From: Vicinamibacterales bacterium
GTDB lineage: Bacteria > Acidobacteriota > Vicinamibacteria > Vicinamibacterales > UBA8438
Assembly (NCBI GenBank): GCA_965262925.1
Contig: CBDHGC010000004.1
Coordinates: 145,112 to 209,111 of the forward strand
Length of the DNA: 64,000 bases
Direction: 5' to 3'
This document shows positions 7,169 through 63,920 of this stretch, piece by piece. Made by a program: the position numbers and the translations under genes. The notes below the pieces were generated by a model. It saw only the letters and a list, made by a program, of their open reading frames with translations. It made no database searches and had not been told where the DNA came from. The stretch's first letter is position 1. Each line of letters starts with the position of its first letter.

Positions 7169-8615
7169 GAGGGTGCCCCAGGCGTAGTGGAAAGTCGGTG
7201 GCGACTCCTGCCCGGCTGTGGTATCAGTCGGGTGTGTTCAAAAAGGAGGAGAGGCCACCGATGAAGAAACCGTACAAGATCGTTTCGGGCGCGTCCACGC
7301 CGAACCGCCGGGAACTGGCGGACTGGCTGGCGAAGGACGGGCAACTGCTGATCCCGCTGGTCGAACTGCTGGAGAAGGGCGAGCGAGCCATCGACGAGGT
7401 GATCGACGTGATGGGCCGGGCGACCATCGAGGCCGTCCTGCGGATGAGCGCCGAGCAGGTGGCGGGGCCGAAGGAGCAGGGACGGCGCGACGCCGACCGG
7501 GATCTGTACTGGCACGGGGTGCAGGCGGGGCGTGTGGCATTGAAGGAGCGGCAGTTGCGGGTCGACAAGCCGCGGCTGCGCAAGAAGCGGCCGCGGGCCG
7601 ATGAGCCGGGCGAGGTGGAGATTCCGGCGTATACGGCGTTGCAGGCGGATCAGCCACTGGCCGACCGGATGCTGGAGCTGGTGCTGCAGGGCGTGTCGAC
7701 GCGCAAGTACGAGAAGGTGCTGCCGGCGCTGGCCGACCAGGTGGGGGTGAGCAAGTCGGAGGTCTCGCGGGAGACCATCGAGGCGGGGACGCGCGTTCTG
7801 AAGGAGTTGGCCGAACGGGACCTGGGCAAGTTGGACGTGCTGGTCGTCTACCTCGACGGGATCGTGTTCGGGAACTACCACGTGCTGGCGGCGGTCGGTG
7901 TGGATGCGGATGGTCGTAAGCACGTGCTGGGGCTTTGCGGCGGGGCATCGGAGAACACGGAGGTCACCGCTGGCCTGCTCGAAGATCTGGTGGCGCGGGG
8001 CCTGCGGGCTGACCGGCGGCGTCTGTTCGTCATCGACGGCGCCAAGGCGCTGCGGCAGGCCATCGGGCGGGTGTTCGGGTCGGCGAACCTGGTGCAACGT
8101 TGTAGAAACCACAAGGTAAGGAACGTCTTGGGTCATCTGCCGAAAGAGCAGCATGAACAGGCGCGTTCGACGCTTCGGGCGGCGTGGAAGCTGGACGCCG
8201 ACGAGGGCATCCGGAAGCTGGAGCAGTGACGCCTCGTGGCTGGAGCGGGAGTGGCCGTCGGCGGCGGCGAGCCTGCGCGAAGGGTTGTCGGAGTTGTTCA
8301 CGGTCAATCGCCTTGGGCTGCCGAAGCCGCTGCGCCGCTGCCTGACGACGACGAACATCATCGACTCGTCGCACGCGGGCGTTCGCCAGCACACGAATCG
8401 GGTGAGTCGCTGGCAGAGCGAGGAGATGGCGGTACGGTGGGCCGCGGTGACGTTCCGAGAGACGGAGAAGCACTATCGCCGTATCACGGGCTATGAGCAT
8501 CTCTGGATGCTGAAGGCGCACCTCGACGAAGAGAATGGCGCCCTTGCCGAATTGCAGAAGGCGGGGTAATGTGTGTCTGTCGCTGCCGACTTTCAACTAC
8601 CGGCGGGACACCCTC
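7169..8615 (+). mobile_element. IS256-family insertion sequence, copy A
   Basis: Imperfect terminal inverted repeats GAGGGTGCCCCAGGCGTAGTGGAAAGTCGG / GAGGGTGTCCCGCCGGTAGTTGAAAGTCGG. 8-bp target duplication CGACGCAA (7161..7168 and 8616..8623). Near-identical to copy B at 59973..61418. Confidence 0.9.
7261..8569 (+). pseudogene. IS256-family (mutator-type) transposase, frameshifted
   Basis: One extra G at ~8227 (GAGCAGTGACGCC versus GAGCAGTACGCC in copy B) splits the 435-aa reading frame that is intact at 60065..61372. Confidence 0.9.
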
Positions 8616-11245: not shown

Positions 11246-11590
11246 CCAACGCGCCGCCGGCAAACGCCCATCCAATCCCGGCGCTCAACCGGCGTCAGTC
11301 ACCCACCGGTGTCCCGACGCTCGGTGGAAAACACGTCGATCCCCTTGTTTTCCGCTTCCTGGCTGCCGCCGGCCCTTCAGGACCAGAACACGGAGTCAAA
11401 ATCCAGAACAATTGGGGTGTTCACCCCGAGAATCGGAGGACTGAGCCGAGCCGCGACCCCAAGAGTTTTGCAAGTGGCTCCCACATTAATGGATTAATGT
11501 GGAGCGATCAGTAATGTGGAGTTGCCGCGGAGAGCGGCGCTCACCCCAAGGCACGGAGAGTCTCCGGACTCCACATTACCGATCGCCTCC

Positions 11591-12609
11591 TCAGAGTGCC
11601 TCAAGCCATTCAAGCACCGACGCGTCTGTGCGCCACAGCGCCGGCCCCGCCGTGGCGCGGGCGGTGGGGCGGGCCTTCGCGAGTGCCTGACGCTTCATGT
11701 CGAGATCGACGGTCGCGTACCGGTGCGTGGTCGTGATGCTGGCGTGACCGAGCCACTGACTGATCGTGACGACGTCGACGCCGGCGCGGAGCAGGTGAAC
11801 AGCCGTGCTGTGCCGCATGCTGTGGGGATGGAGGCGCTTGGTGCGCAAGGCCGGGACGGTGGCCTGCGCGTGGGTGCAGTACTTCTGCAGCAGATAGCGG
11901 ACGCCGAATCGTGTCAGCCGGGTCCCGCGGTGATTACGGAAGACCGGCTCGTCGGATTGCAGCTCGCGGCCGCGTTCGGCCAGCAGGGCACGCAGCAGGT
12001 CGGCGGTCTGGGGCCACAACGGGCAGACCCGCTCCTTCCGCCCCTTGCCCTGCAGGCGGACCTGCGCGGGCGTGTCCAAGCGCAGGTCGGCGACGCCCAG
12101 GGGACGATTTCCTGGACCCGCGCGCCGGTGTTGAACATGGTCGCGAGGAGCGCGTAGTCGCGGCGGCCGTCGACGGTGCCGCGATCGACGACGCCGAGGA
12201 TGGCCTCGATCTCCTCGTGCTCGAGGTACTCCACGAGGCGGCTGCCGGTACGCTTGAACGGGACGGCGAGGACGCGTTGACAGTGTGCGAGTCGTGCTGG
12301 GTACTCCAGGGCGCAGTACCGGAAGAACGCGTGGATCGCGGCAAGGCGTACGTTGCGGGTGGCGACGCTGTTGTGCCGGTCGAGCTCCAGGTACTGGAGA
12401 AACGCGAGGACCGGCTGGGGGCCGAGGTCGTCCAGGTCCAGCCGGATGACGGACCGCCGCGTCTGGGTTGCGACGAAGCGCAGCAAGAGCACCAAGCTGT
12501 CCCGATAGCTCCGGATGGTGTGGGGACTCGTCCCTCGCACCCGGGGCAGGTGGTCGGCGAAGAACGCCCGGAGGGCTCGCGCCAGATCGTTCGGGCCGGC
12601 GGCGGTCAT
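11591..12609 (-). pseudogene. Tyrosine recombinase (third gene of a recombinase-in-trio type element), frameshifted
   Basis: N-part MTAAGPNDLARALRAFFADHLPRVRGTSPHTIRSYRDSL. C-part HPHSMRHSTAVHLLRAGVDVVTISQWLGHASITTTHRYATVD (H-x-x-R, catalytic Y). The frame breaks in a C-run near 12100. The start overlaps the upstream gene stop (ATGA). Confidence 0.75.
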
Positions 12610-12829
12610 CGCGCACCTCCCGCGCCGATGGGTCCGGTGATGAGGTCGCCGCAGTGGTCGGCGAATCGCGCGCTGGCCGCGACCGCGAGGGGTTCGACGA
12701 ACTGGAGGTAGTACGCGGTCGAGACGATCGAGACGTGCCCCATGTAGGCGGCCAGGAAGGGCAGCTTCGCCTGCACGTCGAGTCCGGCGCGATACCACCG
12801 GAGGAGCGCGTTCACGGCGAATCCATGGC
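12606..12829 (-). pseudogene. Tyrosine recombinase C-terminal fragment (upstream trio member), 5-prime truncated at the palindrome
   Basis: RHGFAVNALLRWYRAGLDVQAKLPFLAAYMGHVSIVSTAYYL. Confidence 0.65.
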
Positions 12830-12853
12830 GCTTATTCCGATATCGGAATAAGC
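12828..12853. repeat. 26-bp perfect palindrome at the junction of two opposed recombinase elements
   Basis: CGCTTATTCCGATATCGGAATAAGCG. More TTATTCCG/CGGAATAA copies occur at ~12857, ~12873 and ~12950. Confidence 0.9.
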
Positions 12854-13012
12854 GACATTATTCGGGGATCCGGATTATTCCGAGTCGACTCCGTGTCGAC
12901 GGCGGGAGTGCTCGTAGTTTCAACGTGTTGAGAGGAACCACAGTGTTCGATATTCCGGAATAATCCCGTCTGTCTTCTCCCTCCGTCTTTCCCTCTGCAT
13001 GTCATCAGGAGG

Positions 13013-13459
13013 ATGGAGAAGACCATGTCGATTGACCTCTTTTTCCCCACGTCAGAGAGCCGACAACGGTTACGCGCCGGCCCGCTGGCCCGCGATATCG
13101 ACGGGTTCGCCGCCTGGCTGTCAGTTGAGGGATATGCCCGCCGGTCAGCCCGGGAGAAGCTCCGATTCGTCGGGAAGCTCAGCCGTTGGCTCGAACACGA
13201 AGAGCTTGGCGTCGAGACCCTCGACAAGCAGAGAATCGAGGCTTTCCTGGTCGCTCGCGGGTCAAGGAGCAGCCGGCGTGGCCAGGCAATGACCGGCCGG
13301 CAACTGCTGTGCTACTTGCGCGGGAGCAGCCTCATCCCTGCCGCCGTTTCCTGCCCCGGCAGTGACACTCCGATCGGGCGGATCGAACGAACCTACGAAC
13401 GGTTTCTGGTCGACGAGCGTGGCGTCAGTCCGGCGACGGTGACCAACTATCTGCCCATC
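13013..13459 (+). pseudogene. Tyrosine recombinase N-terminal (SAM-like domain) fragment, cut by IS copy 2
   Basis: SRQRLRAGPLARDIDGFAAWLSVEGYARRSAREK... ends exactly at the IS end (GAGCCTCTTGCAAAA at 13460). Homologous to the N-terminus kept in the 0.9-kb elements at 59 and 62.6 kb. Confidence 0.65.
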
Positions 13460-13599
13460 GAGCCTCTTGCAAAACCCTTGGTCGGCCGGGTTTTCCTACC
13501 CGAGGCAGAGGGAACGGACGGTCAGCGGGGTGGGACGCAGCGTTCGTAGGATTAGGATAGCAGCCGTCACCGGCGCCGGGGAACCGGAGACACGGGGTC

Positions 13600-53907: not shown

Positions 53908-54357
53908 GTGCGAATTTCCAACGAGCCGCAGCAAACCGAAGTACCACACCTGAGTGGCAACACTCGGGTGAACGTCTGGGTCGCGCTACTCGTGATGGAC
54001 GACGAGCAGGACACGAGCCTGACAACGGGCTGGTACTGGCGCCTGGCCGACATGGGCGCCGCCGAGAACGAGCGTCACGACCTGGAGGCATGGCGCAAGG
54101 CGGCGCTCAACGAACAGGGACCGTACCGCAACGCGGACAACGCGATGCAGGGCGTTGCCTACTACTCGGTCGAGCGGGCGACACTGGCCGGAAGGCTCAA
54201 CGAAGCCAACGAATTGATGCGGATGGGCCAGCTGGACGCCACCATCGAACAGATCAGCGAATGGCTGTCGAAGGCGGACGAAATGGACAGGGCGTTGCGC
54301 AACGAGAGCAGGGCGCCGCAGACGCAACCTGCCAACGACGACGGGCAACCGGTGTAG
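53908..54357 (+). CDS. Hypothetical protein
   Basis: GTG start after AAGGAG. 149 aa with a helical, acidic C-terminal half. Confidence 0.4.
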   Translation: MRISNEPQQTEVPHLSGNTRVNVWVALLVMDDEQDTSLTTGWYWRLADMGAAENERHDLEAWRKAALNEQGPYRNADNAMQGVAYYSVERATLAGRLNEANELMRMGQLDATIEQISEWLSKADEMDRALRNESRAPQTQPANDDGQPV

Positions 54358-58571: not shown

Positions 58572-58870
58572 CCCAAACCGAAGCCCGAACACAGGCGGCA
58601 ACGAGCACCGGCAGGACGGCCCAGGGCCGGCCGGTTACCGGCCCTGCGCCGGCCGGTTACCCGCGCCCACCTGAGGATTCATCCGGTACCGGAGAGCAAA
58701 GCGGCCTCCGGTTCAGACGTTCGCCCGGGGATTCCGCACCGAAAACCGCAGTAATCGGCTGAAAAGTCCGAGGACCGTACCCGGTCGTCAACAACGCACG
58801 GATCCGCCGGCCGGTACCAAGCGCCATTCCCGCCAAGCGCGCCAGGTCGACGCTGTTTACAGCGGGCAGT

Positions 58871-59771
58871 GTCAGCGGTCGCCCGAAAGAGCGTCATTCT
58901 GGACGGGACGTCGACCACAACATGTAGGGGGTGTATGAGTGAGCATCGTCGGCAAGAGCCAGTCTGGACGAGCGTGCGCGGAGCCGGCGTCAAGGCCGTC
59001 AGCCCCGCGGAGCGGGGGCGGAGCGAAGCGACGCGCCTTGACGTCGGTGAGCACACGCGCACGCTGTTGGCTTGACGATGCCGCCGGCGACCACAACATC
59101 TTGCGGTCGACCCGAGCCCAGTTTCTGTCAGTATGACCAGCATCGCGTTATGACAAGTGACCGTCGGCGAGACGGTGGCGGTCGGGGTCCAGCACGTCGT
59201 CTGCTTGTCATAATCAGAGGCTCGCCAGGAAGGCCAACAGCGAGGAGTCGGCCTTGAACCGCTGCGTTCGTTGACCGAGCGGCTCGAGTTTTCGCAGAGC
59301 GTCTTCCTTGAGTTGCAGGTCCGCCTCGCCGTATTGATGGGTGGTTTCGAGTCGCTCGTGGCCGAGCCACAGCGCGATGGTCGCCATGTCGACGCCGGCC
59401 TGGAGCAGGTGCATCGCGGTAGTGTGGCGGACGACATGCGGCGACACGCGCGCACGGTGCCCGTCGCGTACCCGCGCGTCATGAGTACGTCGACGAAGTC
59501 GTCGACCCAACGACCCAACGGCCCGGACCGGATCTGGTCGCAGATGCGTGGGCGAACGGAAAGCGTTTCAAGCATGGTCTCCTCCTTGGTCCCCTGACAC
59601 TGGGAACCCGCAGAGACCATGCGTACTATGTCAAGCTCGCGGTAGCGGGGATGCCCGCCACGCCAGGGGCAACGACGCTCGGCTGACCGTCACTTGTCAT
59701 AACGCGATGCTGGTCATACTGACAGGTATGACCAGCTGGTCATACCTGTCAGTTCCTCGCGCTCGGCAACA
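58871..59771. mobile_element. 0.9-kb non-autonomous element derived from a recombinase-in-trio type element, copy 1
   Basis: 6-bp duplication GGCAGT (58865..58870 and 59772..59777) inside an RHH-gene fragment. 37-bp perfect internal inverted repeats at 59125..59161 and 59689..59725. Carries out-of-frame N- and C-terminal tyrosine recombinase remnants. Confidence 0.75.
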
Positions 59772-59972
59772 GGCAGTAGCCCGCACTCCATAGCCCTGCG
59801 CAACGAGAGCGCACCGCTGACACCCTGCTCGAGACAGAACTCGACAACGTGTCAGTACGGCTCCCAATCAGGATCGTGGATTGGACGTGAACGAAATAGC
59901 CTGAATACAGGCGGCAACGACGAGCGGCCGGACAACCGTCAGCCGGCCGGTTGCCGGCCCTGGGCCGGCCGA

Positions 59973-61418
59973 TGAGGGTGCCCCAAGCGTAGTGGAAAGT
60001 CGGTGGCGACTCCTGCCCGGCTGTGGTATCAGTCGGGTGTGTTCAAAAGGAGGAGAGGCCACCGATGAAGAAACCGTACAAGATCGTTTCGGGCGCGTCC
60101 GCGCCGAACCGCCGGGAACTGGCGGACTGGCTGGCGAAGGACGGGCAACTGCTGATCCCGCTGGTCGAACTGCTGGAGAAGGGCGAGCGAGCCATCGACG
60201 AGGTGATCGACGTGATGGGCCGGGCGACCATCGAGGCCGTCCTGCGGATGAGCGCCGAGCAGGTGGCGGGGCCGAAGGAGCAGGGACGGCGCGACGCCGA
60301 CCGGGATCTGTACTGGCACGGGGTGCAGGCGGGACGTGTGGCATTGAAGGAGCGGCAGTTGCGGGTCGACAAGCCGCGGCTGCGCAAGAAGCGGCCGCGG
60401 GCCGATGAGCCGGGCGAGGTGGAGATTCCGGCGTATACGGCGTTGCAGGCGGATCAGCCACTGGCCGACCGGATGCTGGAGCTGGTGCTGCAGGGCGTGT
60501 CGACGCGCAAGTACGAGAAGGTGCTGCCGGCGCTGGCCGACCAGGTGGGGGTGAGCAAGTCGGAGGTCTCGCGGGAGACCATCGAGGCGGGGACGCGCGT
60601 TCTGAAGGAGTTGGCCGAACGGGACCTGGGCAAGTTGGACGTGCTGGTCGTCTACCTCGACGGGATCGTGTTCGGGAACTACCACGTGGTGGCGGCGGTC
60701 GGTGTGGATGCGGATGGTCGTAAGCACGTGCTGGGGCTTTGCGGCGGGGCATCGGAGAACACGGAGGTCACCGCTGGCCTGCTCGAAGATCTGGTGACGC
60801 GGGGCCTGCGGGCTGACCGGCGGCGTCTGTTCGTCATCGACGGCGCCAAGGCGCTGCGGCAGGCCATCGGGCGGGTGTTCGGGTCGGCGAACCTGGTGCA
60901 ACGTTGTAGAAACCACAAGGTAAGGAACGTCTTGGGTCATCTGCCGAAAGAGCAGCACGAGCAGGCGCGTTCGACGCTTCGGGCGGCGTGGAAGCTGGAC
61001 GCCGACGAGGGCATCCGGAAGCTGGAGCAGTACGCCTCGTGGCTGGAGCGGGAGTGGCCGTCGGCGGCGGCGAGCCTGCGCGAAGGGCTCTCGGAGTTGT
61101 TCACGGTCAATCGCCTTGGGCTGCCGAAGCCGCTGCGCCGCTGCCTGACGACGACGAACATCATCGACTCGTCGCACGCGGGCGTTCGCCAGCACACGAA
61201 TCGGGTGAGTCGCTGGCAGAGCGAGGAGATGGCGGTGCGGTGGGCCGCGGTGACGTTCCGAGAGACGGAGAAGCACTATCGCCGCATCACGGGCTATGAG
61301 CATCTCTGGATGCTGAAGGCGCACCTCGACGAAGAGAATGGCGCCCTTGCCGAATTGCAGAAGGCGGGGTAATGTGTGTCTGTCGCTGCCGACTTTCAAC
61401 TACTGGCGGGACACCCTC
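59973..61418 (+). mobile_element. IS256-family insertion sequence, copy B, intact
   Basis: Same inverted repeats as copy A. 8-bp duplication CGGCCGAT (59965..59972 and 61419..61426). Inserted in the GC hairpin site. Confidence 0.9.
60065..61372 (+). CDS. IS256-family (mutator-type) transposase
   Basis: 435-aa intact ORF starting MKKPYKIV... Confidence 0.9.
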   Translation: MKKPYKIVSGASAPNRRELADWLAKDGQLLIPLVELLEKGERAIDEVIDVMGRATIEAVLRMSAEQVAGPKEQGRRDADRDLYWHGVQAGRVALKERQLRVDKPRLRKKRPRADEPGEVEIPAYTALQADQPLADRMLELVLQGVSTRKYEKVLPALADQVGVSKSEVSRETIEAGTRVLKELAERDLGKLDVLVVYLDGIVFGNYHVVAAVGVDADGRKHVLGLCGGASENTEVTAGLLEDLVTRGLRADRRRLFVIDGAKALRQAIGRVFGSANLVQRCRNHKVRNVLGHLPKEQHEQARSTLRAAWKLDADEGIRKLEQYASWLEREWPSAAASLREGLSELFTVNRLGLPKPLRRCLTTTNIIDSSHAGVRQHTNRVSRWQSEEMAVRWAAVTFRETEKHYRRITGYEHLWMLKAHLDEENGALAELQKAG

Positions 61419-61448
61419 CGGCCGATGCCAGGCCCGCGCCTAACCTAA

Positions 61449-61548
61449 GGACAGTGATCGATATAGATTTGCCAACTCCACCAAGGCGCAGCCTCTCTTT
61501 CGCTGCTTGGCACGCCTGGAACGCGGCAAGGTTATTCCCGTCAGTGTC
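61449..61548. mobile_element. 100-bp MITE with CTAA target duplication
   Basis: Ends GGACAGTGATCG ... CGTCAGTGTC (inverted GACA(G/C)TGA). CTAA at 61445..61448 and 61549..61552. It splits the motif CCTAACCTAACGC that is intact at 61871, 63212 and (with one change) 63540. Confidence 0.7.
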
Positions 61549-61552
61549 CTAA

Positions 61553-62184
61553 CGCAAAACAGAACATCAGGACTCCTCAGGTACCGGATAGCGCAGCGAC
61601 CTCCGGTTCAGACGTTCGCCCGGGGATTCCGCACCGAAAACCGCAGTAATCGGCTGAAAAGTCCGAGGACCGTACCCGGTCGTCAACAACGCACGGATCC
61701 GCCGGCCGGTACCAAGCGCCATTCCCGCCAAGCGCGCCAGGTCGACGCTGTCTACAGCGGGCAGTAGCCCGCACTCCATAGCCCTGCGCAACGAGGCGGC
61801 AACGACGAACGGCCGGACAACCGTCAGCCGGCCGGTTGCCGGCCCTGGGCCGGCCGATGCCAGGCCCGCGCCTAACCTAACGCAAAACAGAACATCAGGA
61901 CTCCTCAGGTACCGGATAGCGCAGCGACCTCCGGTTCAGACGTTCGCCCGGGGATTCCGCACCGAAAACCGCAGTAATCGGCTGAAAAGTCCGAGGACCG
62001 TACCTGGTCGTCAACAACGCACGGATCCGCCGGCCGGTACCAAGCGCCATTCCCGCCAAGCGCGCCAGGTCGACGCTGTCTACAGCGGGCAGTAGCCCGC
62101 ACTCCATAGCCCTGCGCAACGAGAGCGCACCGCTGACACCCTGCTCGAGACAGAACTCGACAACGTGTCAGTACGGCTCCCAAT
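61553..62184 (-). repeat. Tandem 328-bp units: 3-prime part of the RHH gene plus the GC hairpin site
   Basis: Units start at 61553 and 61881. The second runs on into a decayed, internally deleted 5-prime gene part and is cut by the 0.9-kb element at 62185. Confidence 0.85.
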
Positions 62185-63088
62185 GTCAGCGGTCGCCCGA
62201 AAGAGCGTCATTCTGGACGGGACGTCGACCACAACATGTAGGGGGTGTATGAGTGAGCATCGTCGGCAAGAGCCAGTTTGGACGAGCGTGCGCGGAGCCG
62301 GCGTCAAGGCCGTCAGCCCCGCGGAGCGGGGGCGGAGCGAAGCGACGCGCCTTGACGTCGGTGAGCACACGCGCACGCTGTTGGCTTGACGATGCCGCCG
62401 GCGACCACAACATCATCTTGCGGTCGACCCGAGTCCAGTTTCTGTCAGTATGACCAGCATCGCGTTATGACAAGTGACGGTCAGCCGAGCGTCGTTGCCC
62501 CTGGCGTGGCGGGCATCCCCGCTACCGCGAGCTTGACATAGTACGCATGGTCTCTGCGGGTTCCCAGTGTCAGGGGACCAAGGAGGAGACCATGCTTGAA
62601 ACGCTTTCCGTTCGCCCACGCATCTGCGACCAGATCCGGTCCGGGCCGTTGGGTCGTTGGGTCGACGACTTCGTCGACGTACTCATGACGCGCGGGTACG
62701 CGACGGGCACCGTGCGCGCGTGTCGCCGCATGTCGTCCGCCACACTACCGCGATGCACCTGCTCCAGGCCGGCGTCGACATGGCGACCATCGCGCTGTGG
62801 CTCGGCCACGAGCGACTCGAAACCACCCATCAATACGGCGAGGCGGACCTGCAACTCAAGGAAGACGCTCTGCGAAAACTCGAGCCGCTCGGTCAACGAA
62901 CGCAGCGGTTCAAGGCCGACTCCTCGCTGTTGGCCTTCCTGGCGAGCCTCTGATTATGACAAGCAGACGACGTGCTGGACCCCGACCGCCACCGTCTCGC
63001 CGACGGTCACTTGTCATAACGCGATGCTGGTCATACTGACAGGTATGACCAGCTGGTCATACCTGTCAGTTCCTCGCGCTCGGCAACA
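62185..63088. mobile_element. 0.9-kb non-autonomous recombinase-derived element, copy 2 (core inverted relative to copy 1)
   Basis: 6-bp duplication CCCAAT (62179..62184 and 63089..63094). 37-bp inverted repeats at 62442..62478 and 63006..63042. The 527-bp core 62479..63005 is the reverse complement of 59162..59688. Confidence 0.8.
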
Positions 63089-63221
63089 CCCAATCAGGAT
63101 CGTGGATTGGACGTGAACGAAATAGCCTGAATACAGGCGGCAACGACGAGCGGCCGGACAACCGTCAGCCGGCCGGTTGCCGGCCCTGGGCCGGCCGATG
63201 CCAGGCCCGCGCCTAACCTAA

Positions 63222-63549
63222 CGCAAAACAGAACATCAGGACTCCTCAGGTACCGGATAGCGCAGCGACCTCCGGTTCAGACGTTCGCCCGGGGATTCCG
63301 CACCGAAAACCGCAGTAATCGGCTGAAAAGTCCGAGGACCGTACCCGGTCGTCAACAACGCACGGATCCGCCGGCCGGTACCAAGCGCCATTCCCGCCAA
63401 GCGCGCCAGGTCGACGCTGTCTACAGCGGGCAGTAGCCCGCACTCCATAGCCCTGCGCAACGAGGCGGCAACGACGAACGGCCGGACAACCGTCAGCCGG
63501 CCGGTTGCCGGCCCTGGGCCGGCCGGTTCCAGGCCCGCGCCTAACCTAG
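63222..63549 (-). repeat. 328-bp unit (RHH gene 3-prime part plus hairpin site) directly downstream of the full-length gene
   Basis: Same unit as 61553..61880. The next unit start, at 63550, belongs to the intact gene. Confidence 0.85.
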
Positions 63550-63563
63550 CGCAAAACAGAACA

Positions 63564-63920
63564 TCAGGACTCCTCAGGTTCCGGATAGCGCAGCGACCTC
63601 CGGTTCAGACGTTGGCCCGGGGATTCCGCACCGCAAACCGCAGTAATCGGCTGAAGGGTCCGAGGACCGTACCGAGTCGTCTGCAAGGTACGGATGGGCC
63701 GCCCAGTACGAAGCGACATTCCCGCCGAGCGCGCCAGGTCAAGGCTGTCTACAGCGGGCGGTAGCCCGTACTCGATAGCCCTGCGCAACAAGAGCGCACG
63801 GCTGACACCGTGCTCGAGACAGAGCCGGTTGAGCTCGTTGAGCTCGGACGCCGCCAATCGCAACTTGACAACGTGTCGGTACGGCTCCCAATCAGGATCG
63901 TGGATTGGACGTGAACCCAT
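63564..63920 (-). CDS. Small ribbon-helix-helix protein (MobC/CopG-like), the only full-length copy
   Basis: 118 aa. VVKLRLAASELNELNRLCLEHGVSRALLLRRAIEYG is an RHH core. Four truncated or decayed copies lie at 58679, 61567, 61895 and 63236. Confidence 0.6.
   Translation of the reverse strand: MGSRPIHDPDWEPYRHVVKLRLAASELNELNRLCLEHGVSRALLLRRAIEYGLPPAVDSLDLARSAGMSLRTGRPIRTLQTTRYGPRTLQPITAVCGAESPGQRLNRRSLRYPEPEES

Follow-up and report, generated by a model that had tools for sequence, protein, structure and literature searches.

Two miniature RIT elements in opposite orientations, nested in a MITE-like carrier of a Vicinamibacterales genome

We analysed a 64-kb stretch of DNA (called the window below) of a Vicinamibacterales genome (GCA_965262925.1, contig CBDHGC010000004.1, positions 145,112 to 209,111), and compared it with loci retrieved from other assemblies and metagenome-assembled genomes (MAGs), which are given L-numbers. 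Two copies of a 0.9-kb composite element are found in the window, at 58871-59771 and 62185-63088. Each copy is a three-layer nest: a carrier that resembles a miniature inverted-repeat transposable element (MITE), a 601-bp remnant of a recombinase-in-trio (RIT) element (the mini-RIT) with its satellite palindrome, and 6-bp hexamers at the junctions (Table 1). Based on BLAST and global alignments each copy splits into three parts: the left arms (58871-59124, 254 bp, and 62185-62441, 257 bp) differ by two substitutions and one 3-bp indel, the right arms (59726-59771 and 63043-63088, 46 bp) show no differences, and the middles (59125-59725 and 62442-63042, 601 nt each) are 100% reverse-complementary. 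An initial annotation, made from the DNA letters and their translated open reading frames (ORFs), had proposed two near-identical copies with a core inverted between inverted repeats, and the alignments bear out both points.

That the copies were inserted independently, as was also proposed, is confirmed by their flanks: each has its own flanking direct repeat, and excision of each element together with one flanking repeat restores host units of ~300 bp that are ~99% identical. The insertion points are 109 bp apart within paralogous units of a host array (58582-63920) consisting of five ~328-bp units, which come from a ribbon-helix-helix (RHH; CopG-like) gene and its upstream GC-rich hairpin. 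The array looks decayed, and the last RHH copy (63564-63920, minus strand, 118 aa) is the only complete-looking one. It has been a landing zone for both composites and for one IS256-like insertion sequence (IS). The direct repeats were read as 6-bp target-site duplications (TSDs); the repeats are present, but a TGT...ACA carrier may begin with their terminal T, and the duplication would then be 5 bp long.

The 37-bp inverted repeat that bounds the core has exactly four occurrences in the window (shuffled sequences are expected to have 0), and grows to 44 bp if two mismatches are allowed. Each repeat contains two direct TATGAC boxes: GTATGACCAGC, and then TTATGACAAGT 17 bp further in. The right junction of the mini-RIT, GCTGGTCATAC-TGACAG-GTATGACCAGC, has a 6-bp hexamer between two inverted 11-bp boxes. 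The perfect palindrome next to it, initially given as 34 bp, measures 36 bp (59718-59753 and 63035-63070).

Table 1. Features of the two composite copies and of the insertion sequence between them (window coordinates).
Feature	Position	Strand	Remarks
TSD, copy 1, left	58865..58870	.	GGCAGT; GGCAG (5 bp) if the carrier begins with the T
Carrier left arm, copy 1	58870..59124	+	MITE-like; terminus TGTCAGCGGTCGCC; long hairpin; arm also found in empty carriers elsewhere
Mini-RIT, copy 1	59125..59725	-	Inverted relative to copy 2
Terminal inverted repeats (37 bp), copy 1	59125-59161 and 59689-59725		
Junction hexamers of mini-RIT, copy 1	59125-59130 and 59720-59725		CTGTCA and TGACAG, respectively
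ritC', copy 1	59214..59447	-	Codons 256-332 and stop; out of frame with ritA'
ritA', copy 1	59447..59575	-	Codons 1-43; mapped from copy 2 via the perfect reverse complement
Satellite palindrome, copy 1	59726..59745	.	GTATGACCAGCTGGTCATAC; two inverted end boxes; 59718-59753 with flanking bases
Hexamer and carrier right terminus, copy 1	59746..59771	+	CTGTCA (59746-59751); GTTCCTCGCGCTCGGCAACA (59752-59771)
TSD, copy 1, right	59772..59777	.	GGCAGT
IS256-like insertion sequence	59974..61418	+	Transposase_mut ORF at 60065-61372; outside the element, between the 601-bp inverted repeats
TSD, copy 2, left	62179..62184	.	CCCAAT
Carrier left arm, copy 2	62184..62441	+	
Mini-RIT, copy 2	62442..63042	+	ritA' on the left-arm side, ritC' beside the palindrome
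Terminal inverted repeats, copy 2	62442-62478 and 63006-63042		
ritA', copy 2	62592..62720	+	MLETLSVRPRICDQIRSGPLGRWVDDFVDVLMTRGYATGTVRA
ritC', copy 2	62720..62953	+	VSPHVVRHTT...LAFLASL*; 2-bp microhomology at the deletion junction
Satellite palindrome, copy 2	63043..63062	.	
Hexamer CTGTCA and carrier right terminus, copy 2	63063..63088	+	
TSD, copy 2, right	63089..63094	.	CCCAAT

[quoted passage not shown] A scan with the C-terminal fragment returned 69 loci, mostly from Vicinamibacterales (Acidobacteriota) MAGs; it was this protein-based scan that found the family, and an exact-pattern scan of genome contigs for the window repeat including its CTGT junction gave no match. Vicinamibacterales MAGs contain RITs of ~3415 bp that are bounded by the same inverted repeats and encode three tyrosine recombinases, and positions 4-276 and 275-598 of the mini-RIT match the two ends of these RITs with 94-99% identity. 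L087, from a metagenome assembly that is public, is the closest parent, with 98.5-99.3% identity; it has three intact genes (417, 312 and 332 aa) with 4-bp overlaps and the same CTGTCA hexamers; in L087 and L001 the trio is co-directional, in the order ritA-ritB-ritC (417/312-318/332 aa). Autonomous parents with the same termini, for which a search had been suggested initially, do exist (L087 and L091-L097). The three-gene trio of RITs (adjacent, co-directional genes that overlap by 4-8 bp) is absent from the window copies, which hold codons 1-43 of ritA and codons 256-332 of ritC only: compared with the parent, RitA residues 1-42 are kept with 100% identity and RitC residues 256-332 with 98.7%, in different frames, 2.8 kb are missing, and the deletion junction shows a 2-bp microhomology. 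The window element is a deletion derivative of a RIT, not an autonomous member. Its own deletion junction was not found among GTDB representative genomes and JGI metagenomes. A 1.15-kb internally deleted RIT occurs independently in another Vicinamibacterales MAG (L019:5169-6317), where both inverted repeats, a palindrome and a right terminus of the carrier type are still present; miniature RITs thus have repeated origins.

In the RIT family RitA has two core-binding domains, RitA, RitB and RitC form separate subfamilies, and RitC bears one more helix, which is conserved, at its C-terminus (PMC8138268). The parent RitA has Pfam SAM-like matches at residues 24-78 and 126-207 plus the catalytic domain, each of RitA, RitB and RitC has its best match in the same-position protein of a Paraburkholderia trio (L050), and the C-terminal tail of RitC (...LLAFLASL) is conserved with that of the Paraburkholderia protein (...LLAFLQSL). 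The trio fragments at 11.5-13.5 kb of the window, to which the initial annotation had compared the core (genes at 13013 and 11591), were ruled out as the parent, with protein identity of just 40-46%; they belong to a second, decayed RIT of a different subfamily (11470-13550). This RIT consists of a frameshifted ritC-like gene (11591-12616, minus strand), the tail of a ritB-like gene (12606-12815) and a RitA-like N-terminus (13013-13549) truncated by an IS5-like (DUF772) element, and it has its own TAATGTGGAG boxes at about 11480-11590.

RIT elements have been described before (Van Houdt et al. 2009 and 2012, PMC3414803; Ricker et al. 2013). They are common across bacterial phyla, and what role the three recombinases play is unknown (PMC3414803, PMC10214605). 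RIT movement has not so far been reproduced, nor has target specificity been put to the test (PMC10214605, Table 1). The full-length relatives found here share with them the ritA-ritB-ritC order with 4-bp overlaps, a RitA with two SAM-like core-binding domains, a length of ~3.4 kb, terminal inverted repeats of 33-44 bp and many identical copies per genome. The window copies differ in being 601-bp deletion derivatives without a working gene that sit inside another mobile element, and both they and their full-length relatives occur in two orientations with reassorted hexamers. Terminal inverted repeats of ~30-40 bp and an end palindrome, the marks of a RIT, are both found in the window (37/44 bp and 36 bp, respectively). 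RITs of Paraburkholderia, Arenicellales, Bryobacterales and Thermodesulfovibrionales likewise have 33-40-bp repeats with the same two-box layout, and beside one end a palindrome of two inverted boxes; a palindrome overlapping one RIT end was already noted by Van Houdt et al. 2012 (PMC3414803). The satellite palindrome is a normal RIT feature, found beside RITs in several phyla, and what had been taken for an extra third arm of the composite is this palindrome. A comparison with Rfam gave only sub-threshold miRNA-type matches for it.

The outer 254+20 bp of each copy are a separate MITE-like element, and the initial view of the whole 0.9 kb as one recombinase-derived element has to be given up. 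The carrier is non-coding and about 285-300 bp long. Its terminal inverted repeats, with TGTCRACGG...GCGAACA at the ends, are long and imperfect, and it has a hairpin at the centre (z = -3.25 for the hairpin fold of the arm). A scan with a left-arm motif found 16 loci, and a scan with the terminus pattern found nine, two of them new. Most of these carriers (at least 10 loci, from many Vicinamibacterales genomes) are empty, with neither a RIT nor a palindrome, and the copies lie at unrelated sites, each with a direct repeat of its own of 4-6 bp (for example TAGAAG, CTTGAG, AGGGC, CACTC and CACAG). Composites with a full-length RIT have their own TSDs as well: ATCGAG in L091, CTTAC in L093, CACAG in L017 and CCTG in L097. 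The closest empty carriers read CAGTTT-CGATCA-GATCCTCG, and the window reads CAGTTT-CTGTCA-[RIT]-TGACAG-[palindrome]-CTGTCA-GTTCCTCG. The carrier thus has what is expected of a MITE: it is small, non-coding and hairpin-forming, with terminal inverted repeats and short TSDs, and is found at many unrelated loci. It differs from known MITEs in that its TSDs have varying lengths (4 to 6 bp), scans with its termini turned up no autonomous partner, and a RIT with palindrome has landed recurrently in its right terminal repeat. As empty carriers have duplications of their own, the TSDs in the window belong to the carrier, not to the recombinases, and therefore are no evidence of recombinase-driven movement. 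As proposed initially, the core cannot act on itself. For annotation this is a warning: the TSDs that flank a recombinase remnant may be those of a second element in which it is carried.

When a RIT itself inserts, no duplication results, as observed at L102, where a palindrome and a RIT interrupt a ritC-like gene belonging to the other RIT subfamily. The empty counterpart of this locus is in the window: L102:1-159 corresponds to 12169-12327 of the window, and L102:3604-4164 to 12329-12888 (window position 12328 is the empty site for the palindrome-plus-RIT insertion). The filled site reads GAAGAA-TGATCA-[palindrome]-TGATCA-[RIT]-TGCGTG-GATCG, and the empty site, which has no RIT and no palindrome, reads GAAGAA-CGCGTG-GATCG. 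No target hexamer is repeated: one junction has the hexamer of the element and the other a hexamer close to that of the target.

Palindromes are also found without a RIT. A long carrier has a solo 20-bp palindrome (GTATGATCAGCTGGTCATAC) in its left terminal repeat, between CGCGTC and CGGGTC (L082:2520-2590), where the related carrier L079 has a single CGTGTC; it thus seems that the palindrome can insert alone, at a position that mirrors the RIT site of the right terminal repeat. An element of ~72 bp consisting of a TGT-type left terminus, a palindrome and an ACA-type right terminus (L076:215-290) may be a relic of RIT loss between two palindromes, or a minimal landing pad. Among L001-L034 the sequences just outside the RIT ends fall into a few recurring families (e.g. 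GCGGTTTAGTCCAAT, TTCAGAAAT and GTCCACTAAT), which loosely resemble the inverted end box GGTCATAC. The same families are joined to differing partners across loci, as if the RIT and palindrome sites reshuffle their neighbours.

Full-length RITs, too, are found in both orientations in the same carrier. Among loci of one metagenome assembly, plus one MAG copy (L017), ritA is beside the left arm in L091, L093 and L017 (the layout of window copy 2), and the RIT is reversed in L092, L096 and L097 (as in window copy 1); these are different loci. L011 and L012, from another genome and another flank context, are a further case: their RITs are 100% identical and point in opposite directions. The RIT bodies of L091, L092, L093 and L097 are identical over 3411 bp, while their junction hexamers differ (CTGTCA, CCTTCA and CCGTCA). 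Pairs of opposite orientation can be matched by the hexamer at the ritA end: CCTTCA in L091 and, reversed, in L092 and L096; CCGTCA in L093 and, reversed, in L097; CTGTCA in window copy 2 and, reversed, in copy 1. In each matched pair the ritA-end hexamer is constant across orientations, and the hexamer at a fixed position of the carrier changes. Because the hexamers follow the RIT ends, the exchange points lie at or outside the hexamers, beyond the homology of the repeats, which argues against a RecA-type crossover within the repeats and for a dedicated recombinase. The pairs were chosen after seeing the data, so the pairing suggests site-specific exchange but does not prove it. Recombination between composites would explain further structures: L087 has left arms on both sides, inverted, and no duplication, which is the expected product of recombination between composites with oppositely pointing RITs, and L009, L010 and L026, with a palindrome on both sides, fit the reciprocal product. 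L087 comes from a related assembly and has the same type of left arm as the window (two differences from copy 1); it adjoins an IS256-like copy that is 99.7% identical to the one in the window.

Taken together, a nested composite whose mini-RIT was flipped by RitA, RitB and RitC acting in trans is the best explanation of the locus, and we consider it probable. The carrier transposes with TSDs of 4-6 bp, presumably through a DDE-type transposase supplied in trans, and in its right terminal repeat lies a RIT with its 20-bp satellite palindrome, joined by 6-bp hexamers. In this lineage the RIT has lost 2.8 kb by illegitimate deletion at the 2-bp microhomology, leaving 601 bp; this remainder has both 37-bp termini and the dead ritA'-ritC' fusion. 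Carrier and mini-RIT would have been copied as one unit into two sites of the repeated RHH-gene array, hence the two different duplications. In one lineage of the composite the segment would have flipped: we infer that the two inverted end sites were recombined by RitA/B/C, supplied by a full-length RIT at another place in the genome of the same cell, where an end site would be the 11-bp box GTATGACCAGC beside a hexamer (11-6-11 at the right junction).

Several observations weigh against this explanation. All three hexamers are of the same allele (CTGTCA/TGACAG) in both window copies, and the crossover cannot be placed from them; the breakpoints put initially at GTGAC(C/G)GTC mark merely the end of repeat identity. 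The cores have 0 differences in 601 bp and the left arms three events in 254 bp (~p = 0.02, computed as (254/901)^3 assuming evenly spread events), which fits re-insertion, cassette exchange or gene conversion equally well. The 64-kb window has no full-length RIT of this family, and the two orientations were seen at different loci of consensus assemblies, not at one and the same locus. For the carrier, the terminus-pattern scans returned non-autonomous copies only and no autonomous partner, and no matching termini were found near transposase genes in the window or in the retrieved loci, including the IS21-like genes near some of them.

Of the other explanations, the one that survives best, though unlikely, is that the two mini-RITs arrived independently: two carriers that already held a palindrome (or a RIT) would each have received a mini-RIT later, by integration beside the palindrome or by cassette exchange. 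The Rit proteins would still be the agents, without a flip in place, and the orientation would be random, the boxes and the CTGWCAG junctions being near-symmetric. The differing left arms around cores without a difference would fit, and so would the 3411-bp identical RIT bodies in carriers whose left arms differ at up to 17 positions, the 100% identical RITs of L011 and L012 in flanks of only 93.5-98% identity, and the solo palindromes at other places. However, the left-arm differences of the full-length relatives are confined to the distal ~120 bp, with no sharp age boundary at the RIT ends, which also weakens the idea that the RIT bodies are strictly younger than their carriers. No palindrome-only carrier at this site is found among ~20 carriers, nor in a scan of JGI metagenomes (a weak negative, as the lineage may be absent there), and the empty site of L102 lacks both RIT and palindrome, so both arrive together. 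Independent arrival also requires two precise insertions of a rare defective element.

A flip of the core by RecA-type homologous recombination between the 37-44-bp repeats, or by template switching during replication, is less likely still. Perfect 37-bp repeats are long enough for rare RecA-dependent or slippage events, and no helper RIT is visible in the window; but a crossover within the repeats would not carry along the hexamers outside the boxes, which move with the RIT ends among the relatives with identical bodies, and the two orientations recur in three unrelated flanking contexts, suggesting a frequent and dedicated reaction. It is very improbable that the 0.9 kb is one non-autonomous recombinase-derived element, with the trio driving both its transposition (with 6-bp TSDs) and its inversion. 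Such an element would account for an outer right terminus that is always ~20 bp past the palindrome, even across diverged RIT subfamilies, for the terminus-plus-palindrome modules on both sides of some RITs (L009, L010 and L026), and for our failure to find a carrier transposase. Empty carriers without any RIT box nonetheless show clean 4-6-bp duplications, the RIT-plus-palindrome insertion of L102 has none, and the two-sided structures, which lack matching TSDs, are explained by recombination between composites with opposite RITs, as in L087. Least probable of all is a collapsed or mis-joined repeat that made the second copy or the inversion: the related contigs come from long-read metagenome assemblies (related assemblies are ENA ERZ25071132, ERZ25068833, ERZ25067264 and ERZ25072670), some at low coverage (contig names ending in 4x-8x), and the region is repeat-rich, but each copy has its own matched TSD and host-unit position, the two-orientation pattern recurs in many independent assemblies and MAGs, and single long reads would span a 0.6-kb inversion inside 3.3 kb.

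The initial annotation saw in the locus an invertible switch, and this is not supported. The core encodes the dead fusion only, with no promoter or coding sequence evidently controlled by its orientation; no sigma-70-like promoter was found in 62100-63200 (by a simple-consensus scan, a weak negative), the host array appears decayed, and both orientations at one locus were not observed. Inversion of RITs has no description that we could find in the searchable literature. Tyrosine recombinases invert DNA in other systems, e.g. the fim switch (FimB/FimE), the R64 shufflon (Rci) and the invertible promoters of Bacteroides. Shared with these are a segment bounded by inverted repeats that occurs in both orientations and the implication of tyrosine recombinases, and by analogy to the shufflon several sites (the RIT ends and the palindrome) could be permuted. 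Here, however, there is no evident gene or promoter under regulation, what inverts is the mobile element itself, the mini copy depends on a recombinase acting in trans, and the orientations are seen at separate loci.

The sites themselves resemble those of other tyrosine recombinases. A dif site has two inverted 11-bp arms around a 6-bp spacer, and lox sites with symmetric spacers show weakened directionality. The right junction of the mini-RIT has the same 11-6-11 arrangement, a resemblance in layout only, and near-palindromic spacers (CTGWCAG, TGATCA) would, by analogy with lox, weaken directionality. Three recombinases are involved in RITs, in contrast to one or two in XerC/D-dif and Cre-lox. 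Several tyrosine recombinases and insertion without target duplication are also known from Tn554, SE and GInt (PMC10214605; PMC5385486), and in Tn554 and SE 6-bp junction ('coupling') sequences travel with the element (PMC10214605); similarly, L102 keeps the hexamer of the element on one side and that of the target on the other. The protein families differ, however, and RITs have symmetric end boxes and a satellite palindrome but no Tfp/GinC or TnpC-like fourth protein.

The entire window is dense in mobile elements. The IS256-like element of Table 1 has a second Transposase_mut copy at 7169-8615 (99% identical to 59974-61418), and contigs of ERZ25068833 and ERZ25071132 carry identical or near-identical copies, a hint that the window stems from the same study or population. 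IS-type segments are repeated as direct or inverted pairs (28822-29514/47375-48067 and 38291-38840/41630-42230), and are 97-99% identical to parts of L086 and L088. No tRNA gene is found in the window, and exact look-ups of the 189-aa and 98-aa ORFs of the element, the RHH protein and the 486-aa ORF at 54090 returned no record. The two cores, 2716 bp apart, make up a perfect inverted repeat of 601 bp. If they recombined, the IS256-like element and the RHH units in between would be inverted, and left-arm/core/left-arm and right-arm/core/right-arm hybrids like L087 would result. Since the TSDs are still matched on both window copies, the copies have not recombined with each other, and an inversion of the 2.7 kb between the cores is ruled out as the origin of the present layout.

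The locus is a new variant on the known RIT and MITE, and its main value is as a minimal substrate with natural recombinants. Beyond it there is a broader possibility, which we put forward tentatively: RIT elements may be cassettes able to invert themselves. The substrates of RitABC would be dif-like sites consisting of the 11-bp end boxes, the 6-bp exchange hexamer and the satellite palindrome, and the products would be inversion, cassette exchange and duplication-free insertion beside box-like sequences; further spread would come from riding in a DDE-type MITE whose terminal repeat RITs target, and the 601-bp mini-RIT would be a natural minimal substrate with all that is needed in cis. If true, this would be the first definition, at the sequence level, of the recombination sites and reactions of RITs. 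The locus and its relatives offer a minimal 601-bp substrate in which both ends are kept, a candidate layout of the sites from box, 6-bp hexamer and palindrome, naturally occurring pairs of opposite orientation with reassorted hexamers, and one clean pair of an empty and a filled site without duplication, and thereby make the mechanism testable by simple plasmid inversion and integration assays.

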